A stretch of 51,258 bases of DNA from NCBI GenBank assembly GCA_934091015.1, contig CAKOKM010000002.1, positions 1 to 51,258 of the forward strand, read 5' to 3'. The DNA is from an uncultured Bacilli bacterium (GTDB lineage Bacteria > Bacillota_I > Bacilli_A > RF39 > UBA660). Within the stretch, counting starts at the first letter, position 1, and the number at the start of each line of letters is the position of its first letter. This document shows positions 3,812 through 25,922 of this stretch, one piece after another. The translations under genes were made by a program, and so were the position numbers. The notes beneath the pieces are model-generated. The model saw only the letters and a program-made list of their open reading frames with translations, was not told the origin of the DNA and did not search any database.

Positions 3812-4345
3812 GTGAGAAAGAGATTATTGATTTTAGGTGCAATACTTTGTGGTGCATTTATTTTAACGGGTTGTGGTAAAGATTCGACAGTTAATAATTA
3901 CGATGGTAAAGTAGAAAATATAACTTATACTAATAAATTTGAATGTAAAAAAAACGAAAAATATACAACATCACAAATGTATTACATAACTAAACAAGAA
4001 GTTTTAAATGATGCAGATAGTGGTAAGGACGCTGTTAATGTAACACTTACTAGAAGTTATGATTTTAATAAAGATGGCAGTAAATTACTTGCTTATTATG
4101 ATATAACTGTTTATGATTTTCTTGTTAGTTATGATATGGATGCTTTAAAGAAATATTATGAAGATGAATGTAGTAAGCAAGATAAAAATACTTATAAAAG
4201 TTGTAATGTTAGTTTAAAAGATAAAACTATTACAGTTATTTCGGAAGTAGATTTAAATTCTGAAATAGCTAATGAATATTTAACAACTGTAACTTTAGAT
4301 AAAATTAAAGATAACTATGCTGAATCAACATATAAATGTGAATAG
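3812..4345 (+). CDS. lipoprotein, unknown function
   Basis: GTG start 7 nt after GAAGGAGGA. The signal peptide has a lipobox (AFILTGC). Confidence 0.75.
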   Translation: MRKRLLILGAILCGAFILTGCGKDSTVNNYDGKVENITYTNKFECKKNEKYTTSQMYYITKQEVLNDADSGKDAVNVTLTRSYDFNKDGSKLLAYYDITVYDFLVSYDMDALKKYYEDECSKQDKNTYKSCNVSLKDKTITVISEVDLNSEIANEYLTTVTLDKIKDNYAESTYKCE

Positions 4346-4407: not shown

Positions 4408-4436
4408 TTGACTTTTCGTTAAAATTATAGTATACT
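4408..4436 (+). promoter_or_regulatory. sigma-A-type promoter of the tandem-repeat RNA
   Basis: TTGACT (4408-4413), a 17-nt spacer, then TATACT (4431-4436). Confidence 0.5.
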
Positions 4437-4440
4437 TTTC

Positions 4441-4600
4441 ATGTACTTGAGATAGTACTCGAAGAAAATGTTAGCCGCTCTTGGATGGCGCGGGTTATAA
4501 ATTATTCCAGTCGCGAAATGTTAATCGCTCCCGGATGGTGCGAATAATAAATTATTCCGGTCGAAAATATTTTAGGAGATAAAATTTTATCTTCTTTTTT
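4441..4600 (+). ncRNA. candidate small RNA with two 50-nt pseudoknot-forming tandem repeats
   Basis: It has its own promoter, a 5' hairpin (GTACT/AGTAC), two 50-nt repeats that are GC-rich for this genome, and an AT-rich palindrome followed by a T-run (4577-4600). There is no ORF with an RBS. Confidence 0.45.
4464..4563 (+). repeat. 2 x 50-nt head-to-tail direct repeat
   Basis: 4464-4513 aligns with 4514-4563 at an exact 50-nt offset. A partial third start (GAAAAT) lies at 4563-4568. Confidence 0.85.
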
Positions 4601-4601
4601 G

Positions 4602-4651
4602 TTGACATTATATTTAATATTTTGTATTATTGTATTAAGTAAGCAATACAA
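4602..4651 (+). promoter_or_regulatory. promoter and palindromic operator of the gntR-ABC operon
   Basis: TTGACA (4602-4607), 17 nt, then TATTAT (4625-4630). Immediately after comes the inverted repeat TTGTATT-n8-AATACAA (4630-4651). Confidence 0.6.
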
Positions 4652-4666
4652 TAGAAAAGAGGGATA

Positions 4667-5035
4667 ATGAAATTTAATTTTGATAATAATATACCAATTT
4701 ATATTCAATTAGTAGAACAAATAAGATTATTAATATTATCTGGTTATTTTAAGTTGGGTGATAGATTACCATCAGTTAGAGAATTTGCACTTATTGCGAA
4801 GGTTAATCCGAATACAGTACAAAAGGCTTTGCAAGAACTGGAAGATGAAAAGTTAATATATACTGATAGAACAAATGGTAAGTATATTACTGATGATAAA
4901 AATTTGATAAAAAAATTAAAGTTAAAAATAGCAAATGATTTTGTTTTAAATTATTTAGAGGATATGAATAAAATTGGTTTTAATAAAGAGGATGCAATAA
5001 AGTATTTAGTAGAATATGAAGGAGATAAAAAATGA
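4667..5035 (+). CDS. GntR-family (YtrA-like) transcriptional regulator
   Basis: Short GntR with a winged-HTH signature (LPSVREFALIAKVNPNTVQKALQELE). It overlaps the downstream ABC ATPase gene. Confidence 0.85.
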   Translation: MKFNFDNNIPIYIQLVEQIRLLILSGYFKLGDRLPSVREFALIAKVNPNTVQKALQELEDEKLIYTDRTNGKYITDDKNLIKKLKLKIANDFVLNYLEDMNKIGFNKEDAIKYLVEYEGDKK

Positions 5036-5727
5036 GTTTATTAGAATGTAAAAATATAGTTAAAAAGTTTGATAATAGAATTGTTTTAGATAATATTAAT
5101 TTAAAAATAGGTAAAGGAAAGATTATTGGTTTACTTGGTAAAAATGGAGCTGGTAAGACGACTTTAATTAAAATAATGAATGGTTTACTTACAACAGATA
5201 ATGGAGAAATATTGTTTAATAATAATGATATTTCATATAAAGATAGAAATGATATTGCATACTTACCAGAAAGAAGTTATTTAAATAAAGATATGAAAAT
5301 ATATGAATCAATAAATTATATGAAAGATTTTTATAGTAACTTTGATGAAAATAAAGCGTATAAATTACTTGAAGAATTAAATTTAGATAAAAATATTACT
5401 ATATCTAAATTATCTAAGGGTATGCAAGAAAAGTTACGTTTAATACTGGTGATGGCAAGAAACGCTGATTTATATATTTTAGATGAGCCATTAGGTGGAG
5501 TAGATCCAGCTACTAGAGATTATATTTTAGATACAATACTAACAAATATTAAAAGTGGATCTAGTGTTTTAATATCAACTCATTTAATTTCAGATGTAGA
5601 AAGAATATTAGATGAAGTAATATTTATAGATGATGGTAAAATTAAATTAGTTTCAGATACAGATGAGTTAAGAGAAAAAGAAAATGCTAGTATAGACGAA
5701 GTTTTTAGGAGGACTTTTAAATGTTAA
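5032..5727 (+). CDS. ABC transporter ATP-binding protein
   Basis: Walker A GKNGAGKTT, signature LSKGMQEKL, Walker B LYILDEP. Confidence 0.9.
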   Translation: MSLLECKNIVKKFDNRIVLDNINLKIGKGKIIGLLGKNGAGKTTLIKIMNGLLTTDNGEILFNNNDISYKDRNDIAYLPERSYLNKDMKIYESINYMKDFYSNFDENKAYKLLEELNLDKNITISKLSKGMQEKLRLILVMARNADLYILDEPLGGVDPATRDYILDTILTNIKSGSSVLISTHLISDVERILDEVIFIDDGKIKLVSDTDELREKENASIDEVFRRTFKC

Positions 5728-24743: not shown

Positions 24744-25252
24744 TTGTAGTTAATTGTTATATCAGATTTTTTAAAGTAAAATTATCATGTCTAAACTTTT
24801 CTGTAATTATTTTTTGATTTATTCATATTTATTTTAAATTTTTTAATGCTTATAAAACGTTAATGATTATTGTGTTCTCATTACGAAAAAAGGTACAAAA
24901 CGGAAAAAATTCGTAATGGATGGTATAGGAATATAAATAGAGATTATTGTTACTAAAGATGGAGTTGGTTCATATATAAATGATGATGGTATACTATTTT
25001 TAAATATTTATGAATTCTTATTAAATGAAAATAGTTTAGAAATATAAAAAGTTAGATTTGCAGTAAATACATATAAAATGAAACGAAATAATAAACTTAA
25101 AAAATTTTTACTTTGAGAATTAAATATATTGTATATTGCAACTTAAATGCATATGGTATAGACATTTTCTAAAAAGTATGGTAAATTATTCGTACATAAG
25201 CAATTATGTTATGCAAATTGTTGCATATAATATTAGTGCAACATGTTGTTAT

Positions 25253-25365
25253 AAAAAAGCTAGTGATTCCCACTAAGAGAGGAACTTAAAAAAGAAGTGA
25301 TTCCGGCTTAGACAGGAACTTAAAAAAGAAGCGATTCCGGCTTAAATAGGAACTTAAAAAAGAAA
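25253..25365 (+). ncRNA. toxI: type III antitoxin RNA: about three tandem 34-35-nt repeats (ToxI/antiQ-like)
   Basis: Repeats at 25253-25287 (35 nt, divergent), 25288-25321 and 25322-25355 (34 nt each), then a partial fourth. Each begins AAAAAAG and ends GGAACTT. Confidence 0.8.
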
Positions 25366-25387
25366 CTAGAGAGCTTACTCTAGTTTT
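25363..25387 (+). terminator. hairpin between the antitoxin repeats and toxN
   Basis: AAACTAGAG-agctta-CTCTAGTTT followed by TTATT. This is the position of the attenuating terminator in known ToxIN loci. Confidence 0.6.
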
Positions 25388-25406
25388 ATTAAACTTTAGG
25401 GGGATT

Positions 25407-25922
25407 ATGGATAAGTTATTTTTAGTTAAGATAGATTATAAATATTGTAACTATTTAAGAAAGTTTGATAATAAAGTGCCATATAATATGGATAAAAAAG
25501 AATTGAGACCCTTTATTGGCGTTTTATTTGAAATAAATAAATGTAAATATTTTGCGCCATTATCAAGCCCAAAAGAAAAACATAAAACAATGAGAAGCAG
25601 TATTGATTTCTTAAAAATTGATAATGGTAATCTTGGAGCTATTAATTTTAATAATATGATACCAGTTGCTAATAGCAATATTATTTACTTAAATTTAAAT
25701 GAAAAACCAAAAGATAAGAAAGAAGCAAAATATTATAAATTACTTACTGAACAATTATTTTGGTTAAATCGTAATGATGTAAAAGTATTTAAAAGATCAA
25801 GAAATTTATATGATAAATATAAAAATAAAGATTTAAATGAGAATATAATTAAAAGATGCTGCAATTTCCCTCTACTTGAAGAAAAATGTAAAGAATATAA
25901 TAATATAGAACAAAAAGTTTAA
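25407..25922 (+). CDS. toxN: ToxN/AbiQ-family type III toxin endoribonuclease
   Basis: 171 aa. The blocks YLRKFDNKVP, FIGVLFEINKCKYFAPLSSPKEKH, LGAINFNNMIP and CCNFPLLEEKCKEY match my recollection of ToxN. RBS GGGGGA. Confidence 0.85.
   Translation: MDKLFLVKIDYKYCNYLRKFDNKVPYNMDKKELRPFIGVLFEINKCKYFAPLSSPKEKHKTMRSSIDFLKIDNGNLGAINFNNMIPVANSNIIYLNLNEKPKDKKEAKYYKLLTEQLFWLNRNDVKVFKRSRNLYDKYKNKDLNENIIKRCCNFPLLEEKCKEYNNIEQKV

Follow-up and report, generated by a model that had tools for sequence, protein, structure and literature searches.

The region at positions 4408–4600 of the 51,258-nt stretch of DNA analysed here (the window) very probably derives from a CptIN type III toxin-antitoxin (TA) locus that has kept its antitoxin part and lost the toxin gene, cptN. 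The two 50-nt tandem repeats in this region are homologous to arrays that lie directly ahead of cptN at other loci, and it is on the basis of this homology that we assign them to CptI. No CptN-like sequence was found in the 51-kb window, either by tblastn or by an HMM run on all six frames with filters off, and the next gene downstream of the array is a GntR regulator. A first-pass annotation of this DNA had described tandem H-type pseudoknots of the type III antitoxin kind with no toxin gene beside them, and both parts of that description agree with our results, as homologous arrays precede cptN and the window copy does not. Our view of the genome is 51 kb, and the absence of cptN holds for that stretch.

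The element has the layout of a short transcription unit on the plus strand. A sigma-70-type promoter, with TTGACT at 4408–4413 and TATACT at 4431–4436 separated by a 17-nt spacer, matches the consensus at 10 of 12 positions in our scan. In this AT-rich DNA promoter-like sites are equally common in real and in shuffled sequence, so a 10/12 match alone is weak evidence; support for the promoter comes from its exact conservation ahead of intact cptIN operons, the window sequence being found base for base 5′ of the arrays in loci L104, L133 and L085, where cptN follows. On these grounds we keep the near-consensus promoter of the first-pass annotation. In locus L004 the −35 element reads TTTACT. 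Between the predicted transcription start and repeat 1, RNAfold predicts a 5′ leader hairpin on the plus strand (GTACT-TGAGAT-AGTAC, 4443–4458) that is also kept in L104, L133 and L085.

TRF found one array in this region, at 4466–4563, with a period of 50, 2.0 copies, 81% matches and 0 indels, in line with the two in-register 50-nt repeats reported earlier. We place repeat 1 at 4465–4514, where both stems covary (nhmmer 52.4 bits; covariance model R1 65.3 bits, E = 9e-14), and repeat 2 at 4515–4564 (nhmmer 57.0 bits; R1 73.6 bits, E = 9e-16), both on the plus strand. The core motif CGCTNNNGGATGGNGCG occurs in the window at 4476 and 4526 only, with 0.18 matches expected by chance, and neither nhmmer nor covariance model R1 with filters off found further CptI units in the 51 kb. 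The repeats are GC-rich, as had been remarked, with a GC content of 44% at 4450–4549 versus about 20% in the flanks on both sides. Downstream of repeat 2, RNAfold gives a 9-bp hairpin at 4574–4595 (stem AGGAGAUAAAA/UUUUAUCUUCU). A U-run then extends as far as 4600, which makes 4574–4600 a predicted plus-strand intrinsic terminator and matches the AT palindrome and T-run at which the transcript had been proposed to end. Our terminator scan missed this hairpin because it demands at least three G-C pairs and the stem has fewer. In L004 a G-to-A change in the terminator turns a G·U pair into A-U. From its promoter to this terminator the transcript is predicted to be about 155 nt, and it would stop just ahead of the gntR promoter (TTGACA at 4602).

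Two other candidates in this region were examined and set aside. A minus-strand transcript (fold z-score −2.9) was rejected, as the U-run, the promoter and the cptN genes downstream of the homologous arrays are all on the plus strand. The 177-aa ORF upstream of the element was rejected as a toxin in reversed gene order; it matched no protein family and encodes a lipoprotein (LTGC lipobox).

Each repeat is predicted to form an H-type pseudoknot, with the helix strands in the order S1-5′, S2-5′, S1-3′, S2-3′. In repeat 1, stem 1 pairs 4475–4478 with 4490–4493 (CCGC/GCGG) and stem 2 pairs 4482–4485 with 4506–4509, extended by a wobble between 4481 and 4510 (TTGGA at 4481–4485, TCCAG at 4506–4510), and the A/U-rich loop 2, GUUAUAAAUUAU, spans 4494–4505. 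In repeat 2, stem 1 pairs 4525–4528 with 4540–4543 (TCGC/GCGA), stem 2 pairs 4531–4535 with 4556–4560 (CCGGA/TCCGG), and loop 2 spans 4544–4555; all of these features are on the plus strand. The 3′ tails are GUCGCGA in repeat 1 and GUCGA in repeat 2. Both crossing helices had already been drawn in the first-pass annotation, and all four of their strands are present at those positions in both copies.

That annotation had also claimed compensatory substitutions between the two copies, and this was upheld on a much larger set. In alignment A2, a gap-free set of 138 distinct homologous 50-nt units, the covariation score was reached by 0 of 500 shuffles and 7 of the 10 pairs showed double changes. 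Homologues whose substitutions break the proposed pairs had been named as grounds for rejecting the structure; instead, 90% of cells are paired overall across the 138 units, versus 26–54% when the 3′ partners are slid by 1–3 columns. In stem 1, the pair at alignment columns 11–29 is UA in 99 units and CG in 33. In stem 2, pair 18–45 is CG in 77 units, UA in 56 and UG in 5, with 0 unpaired, pair 21–42 is AU in 89 and GC in 43, and pairs 19–44 and 20–43 show occasional AU and GU. Only some 70% of units retain the outermost pair of the second helix, 17–46 in the alignment and 4481–4510 in the window. Because CGC...GCG and GG were set by the scan pattern, the invariance seen at those columns partly reflects the way in which the units were collected; the columns that covary were free in the pattern or lie outside it. 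In loop 2 (GUUAUAAAUUAU in repeat 1), A33, A35, A36 and A40 are invariant across the family and T34 is nearly so, a conservation at the level of primary sequence. We consider the H-type pseudoknot strongly supported by this covariation, and since it occurs in crossing helices, it argues for an RNA rather than for DNA operators.

A scan of one genome per species with the pattern AATGTTNNNCGCTNNNGGNTGGNGCG returned at least 120 loci. Among the matches listed, almost all come from gut MAGs of low GC content that carry the label Bacilli, Tenericutes or Erysipelotrichaceae. A profile made from the units found 138 arrays among the matches listed, nearly all with exactly two units. Copies in relatives and a covariance model had been suggested as a check on the element; the scan supplies the former, and covariance model R1 scores both window repeats. 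Toxin linkage was scored with a CptN HMM on the 900 nt downstream of each array. Among the matches listed, a full-length CptN in one frame follows 60 of the 138 arrays, a partial or frameshifted CptN follows 17, no CptN follows 39, and the remaining 22 arrays are too near an end to score. An intact CptN gene is found about 60–200 nt downstream of 60 of the 116 assessable arrays, and counting pseudogenes the number of CptN-linked arrays is 77, again among the matches listed.

In the viral collection, a first, tighter pattern gave no match, and a looser gapped pattern gave one real locus along with 8 GC-rich chance matches. The real locus (L016, IMGVR_UViG_3300011008_002676) is a complete cptIN locus at 4510–5239 of a 63-kb viral-collection contig, and its order is a TTGACT promoter, two homologous 49–50-nt repeats, a terminator, about 80 nt and then a 159-aa ORF. 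This ORF scores 156.9 bits on the NCBIfam CptIN equivalog NF047359 (cutoff 90) and matches the CptN chain of PDB 4RMO with an E of 2e-17, while reaching only 16.7 bits on Pfam ToxN; judged by these matches, it is a CptN toxin. The toxins of L104 and L133 score 147 and 157 bits on NF047359, respectively, and the arrays of L016, L104 and L133 are among the 60 with a linked CptN. A neighbouring ORF on the L016 contig has a weak T4SS-pilin match and may point to a prophage or a conjugative element; in the Blower 2012 survey, cptIN was found on chromosomes only (PMC3401426). The L016 CptN has more than 2,700 database relatives, and none of the 120 listed carries a precomputed Pfam domain. The source names of these 120 are uninformative, with one labelled just ‘hypothetical protein’, and this CptN sub-family appears to be invisible to Pfam-based annotation.

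From its genomic associations, the repeat family is the CptI antitoxin of a large CptIN subfamily, an assignment that we base on toxin linkage and a common architecture and not on RNA similarity to E. rectale CptI. A profile of the window RNA family gave no match to the E. rectale CptI sequence, and Rfam searches with the repeats, at the gathering threshold and at E ≤ 10, returned chance rows only; no Rfam model for CptI exists. Both results could be read as signs of a new class of structured RNA, which the first-pass annotation had listed among its options, or of DNA-level protein-binding repeats. However, 77 arrays among the matches listed are CptN-linked when pseudogenes are counted, the architecture is identical to that of published cptIN loci, and the covariation in crossing helices argues against DNA operators. 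We give both readings next to no credence, as the repeats are homologous to arrays upstream of CptN, a known family (PMC3401426, PMC4627078).

The CptIN family itself has been described previously (Blower 2012; Rao 2015), and the window locus is a member of it or of a sub-family with 50-nt units. In E. rectale, CptI folds into an H-type pseudoknot of 45 nt whose two stems are coaxial and whose loop 2 is long and A-rich (PMC4627078; PDB 4RMO); loop 2 makes an A-minor twist on stem 1 and A29 and U30 are essential (PMC4627078). The E. rectale CptN cuts CptI after A45 (GA↓AAG, with a cyclic phosphate on A45), and the two form a 2:2 heterotetramer (PMC4627078). The window resembles this system in having, as predicted from sequence, a promoter, about two tandem repeats and then a terminator, and its unit is likewise an H-type pseudoknot with a long loop 2, A/U-rich in this case. 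Two-unit arrays fit the 2:2 complex (PMC4627078), the hosts are gut Firmicutes, and the homologous arrays precede proteins that pass the NCBIfam CptIN equivalog cutoff. By eye, UAUAAAU can be found in loop 2 of the window units and of E. rectale CptI alike, and the boundaries share GA↓AA, a likeness for which the profile search gives no statistical support.

There are several differences from the published CptIN loci. The window has no cptN downstream and contains a CptI array but an incomplete cptIN module. Its 50-nt unit is just above the published length, cptI having been described with 1.9–3.4 repeats of 40–48 nt in 33 loci (Blower 2012, PMC3401426). In the window, the 5′ strand of stem 2 is separated by 4 nt (UGG+N) from the 3′ strand of stem 1, and loop 1 has 2–3 nt where that of E. 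rectale has 1 nt. No primary-sequence similarity to E. rectale CptI could be detected, and the toxins linked to this family have no Pfam domain on record. Some cptIN loci, including those of Bryantella formatexigens, Lachnospiraceae 9_1_43BFAA and others, carry a truncated toxin with a full repeat set (PMC3401426). In those loci, as here, the array and terminator outlast the toxin, and the 17 partial or frameshifted toxins among the matches listed belong to the same continuum; the window differs in that its toxin gene is wholly gone and the array abuts an unrelated operon.

The ToxI/ToxN system (RF02519) is comparable in that a tandem pseudoknot RNA is processed by, and inhibits, an endoribonuclease toxin. 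ToxI units, however, are 34–36 nt long, occur about 3–5 times and have triplex pseudoknots in triangular 3:3 complexes, whereas the window array has 50-nt units, no adjacent ToxN and a different toxin family. The array also had no match to the Rfam ToxI model, as the sole ToxI row falls within gntR on the minus strand and, at 15 bits, is a chance match.

The window does contain a second, complete type III TA locus at 25252–25922. It consists of a ToxI-like array of 34-nt tandem repeats in 3.3 copies (25252–25364), which falls below the Rfam ToxI gathering score, a terminator at about 25358–25388 (25252–25390 for array and terminator together) directly upstream of ToxN, and a 171-aa ToxN/AbiQ toxin at 25407. 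The matches of this toxin (Pfam ToxN, E = 5e-48; PADLOC AbiQ, E = 6e-40) confirm the ToxN that the first-pass annotation had placed there. With components of both type III systems within the same 51-kb window, the array at 4465–4564 had been suggested as a decoy for this ToxN, and it could also be thought of as an auxiliary antitoxin for it. We regard either role as highly unlikely. The toxin is of a different family (AbiQ/ToxN) than CptN and has its own 34-nt × 3.3 ToxI array and terminator immediately upstream, the two repeat families are unrelated, with the covariance model finding nothing at 25.2 kb, and CptN and the window ToxN show no significant similarity. Type III antitoxins were strictly specific for their cognate toxin in cross-inhibition tests (PMC4627078), and even toxins and antitoxins of one family did not cross-talk in published experiments (PMC4627078; PMC5086642).

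The genes that follow the array encode a 122-aa GntR regulator, an ABC ATPase and a 286-aa ORF, the last of which has no Pfam match and is presumably the transporter permease. The gntR gene has its own promoter on the plus strand, TTGACA-17-TATTAT from 4602 (11/12), which overlaps a tandem TTGTATTA TTGTATTA at 4622–4637 with an inverted partner, AATACAA, at 4645–4651. These sites, which recur in the same arrangement in the 67%-identical operon of L012, are probably the autoregulatory operator of the YhcF-like GntR. Metagenome contigs with the same GntR, or with one that is 94–98% identical, carry the repeat element, and the GntR-synteny homologue search returned same-genus copies only. In L009 (4460–4975) and L011 (2704–3219) an extra 171-aa ORF lies between the presumed permease and an SDR gene, an arrangement not found in the window; this ORF was rejected as a toxin candidate, having no Pfam, NCBIfam or PADLOC match.

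Its position upstream of the gntR-ABC operon, on the operon's strand and with a terminator at its end, could conceivably make the array a cis-regulatory leader of that operon, for example a tandem riboswitch or an attenuator acting via the terminator at 4574–4600. Several observations make such a leader very improbable. The 11/12 promoter of gntR is located past the terminator, homologous arrays precede CptN or unrelated genes and not gntR, and no Rfam family, riboswitches included, matched at E ≤ 10, a match to a riboswitch or leader model being what had been named at the outset as pointing to a different explanation. In the next-closest gntR-ABC operon, that of L012–L015 (67% identity), the 95-bp intergenic region contains no repeats yet keeps the gntR promoter and the TTGTATTA.../...AATACAA operator. 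Because this operon retains both without the repeats, the comparison indicates that the repeat element is an independent transcription unit, inserted ahead of an operon that has a promoter of its own.

Closely related loci suggest how the CptI array came to be without its toxin. The promoter, leader hairpin and array of L104, L133 and L085 are the same as those of the window, and the flanking genes are 88–96% identical. The array of L104, which is linked to cptN, is identical to that of the window at 99 of 100 positions (1 base differs), with repeat 2 identical throughout, and this speaks for the orphan antitoxin that the first-pass annotation had proposed as one option. In all three loci a different terminator and then an intact cptN follow, and all three score a full-length CptN. 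The homology of the window to these cptN-linked relatives ends exactly after repeat 2. Past that point the window has the terminator of the second L009 module and of the L011 module, found there 3′ of orphan arrays, and then the gntR promoter; intact cptIN loci have a different terminator in this position. L009 carries two orphan modules in tandem, each with a promoter, two repeats and a terminator, and its two promoter and terminator types, which differ from each other, are those joined in the window, while L011 has a single module behind a different upstream gene. The window junction is a promoter and array of the cptN-linked type fused to the terminator of a second array type. The 5′ part of the window copy is thus that of a cptN-linked module and its 3′ part that of a different array, a pattern most simply explained if adjacent cptI arrays recombined and the toxin was thereby deleted.

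Layouts of the form array-cptN-array and array-pseudogene-array-cptN are common among the matches listed, and such tandem cptI(N) layouts provide direct repeats for recombinational toxin loss. Tandem modules 0.5–1 kb apart were observed in L035, L036, L048, L072, L077, L086, L101, L117 and L130, often with one toxin intact and the other frameshifted or absent, and 4-unit arrays were observed in L070 and L101. The cptIN cassettes of the relatives keep only the last 47–73 nt of the lipoprotein gene (L133 5985–6035, L104 ~5205–5277, and L085), and the same gene is full-length in the window (3812–4345). L133 has cptN and a 234-aa ORF in place of the gntR-ABC genes. The cptIN/gntR neighbourhood looks like a recombination hot spot.

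By analogy with the E. rectale CptIN complex, the ~155-nt transcript from the promoter would fold into two pseudoknots, and a cognate CptN RNase would cut after GA at the repeat boundaries, at approximately 4465/4466, 4516/4517 and 4564/4565. The motif GA↓AA is found at all three boundaries. The processed units would then hold CptN inactive in a 2:2 complex. Without cptN in cis, the array RNA would have no partner at the window locus; a closely related CptN (L104-type), if encoded elsewhere in the genome or brought in on a mobile element, could still be neutralised by it. The window array is most likely a recent relic that would be unprocessed and inert, because many orphan units are only 0–2 nt from a toxin-linked unit and all stages of toxin decay are seen.

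A retained trans-acting antidote is a serious alternative to the relic. Here the CptI array would be kept by selection, buffering a paralogous cptIN locus or providing anti-addiction or immunity against a phage- or plasmid-encoded CptN, which we consider possible though unlikely. In type II systems, orphan or anti-addiction antitoxins without their own toxin can neutralise a toxin encoded elsewhere. Pseudo-ToxI of phage PhiTE, a phage-borne antitoxin sequence without a toxin, has reportedly been shown by experiment to do the same, and differs from the window array in that the latter is chromosomal and its trans activity putative. Toxin-less arrays are frequent in our family (39 of 116 assessable arrays among the matches listed, 27 of them with two or more units), and in the multi-unit orphan arrays 51 of 51 units keep 8 of 8 core pairs, versus 99% of linked units. 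These multi-unit arrays carry terminators and are then followed by unrelated genes. When orphan units are compared with the nearest linked unit, paired columns change less (1.7 vs 3.1 per column), and mostly as compensatory doubles. The clade often has several cptI(N) loci per genome, with orphans beside complete ones, the promoter in the window is intact, and the presence of cptIN on the viral-collection contig L016 makes an incoming CptN plausible.

Much of this can also be accounted for without selection. With many orphan units only 0–2 nt from the nearest toxin-linked unit, recent loss alone can explain their intactness, so these distances do not separate a relic from a selected array; the intactness (51/51 units with 8/8 core pairs) is equally expected under retention by selection. 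The continuum of frameshifted and truncated toxins fits plain decay, the −35 element in L004 is weakened, and no cognate cptN of the window strain was seen within the 51 kb. As CptI is highly specific (PMC4627078), any protection would be limited to a near-identical CptN. A recent relic is the reading we prefer for the window. For the family as a whole, we think it doubtful that toxin-less CptI arrays are kept as chromosomal ‘antidote-only’ genes, whether as anti-addiction or anti-exclusion immunity against phage- or plasmid-delivered CptN or for the safe loss of a resident cptIN. If this were true, antidote-only arrays would correspond, at the RNA level, to orphan protein antitoxins, and the flanking array-toxin-array layout would be a built-in route for toxin excision by recombination.

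In the type III TA papers that we searched for ‘orphan’ (including PMC3401426 and PMC5086642), we found no mention of fully toxin-less arrays. Surveys such as Blower 2012 would have missed them because they searched by toxin, and the locus class missed by toxin-based surveys is sizeable: among the matches listed, about one third of assessable arrays are toxin-less and another 15% have a broken toxin. This frequency is modestly interesting and deserves an unbiased census. For the window, an unannotated GC-rich intergenic RNA can now be assigned to a known system. The covariation-supported alignment of 138 distinct units could serve as the seed of a family model for this RNA, and with it the known CptI unit length reaches 50 nt. 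If orphan arrays are not protective, then they document the expected order of TA decay, with the toxin lost first and the antidote last. Should they turn out to be expressed and to protect in trans, they would give the cell a simple RNA-based immunity to type III toxins that arrive from outside.
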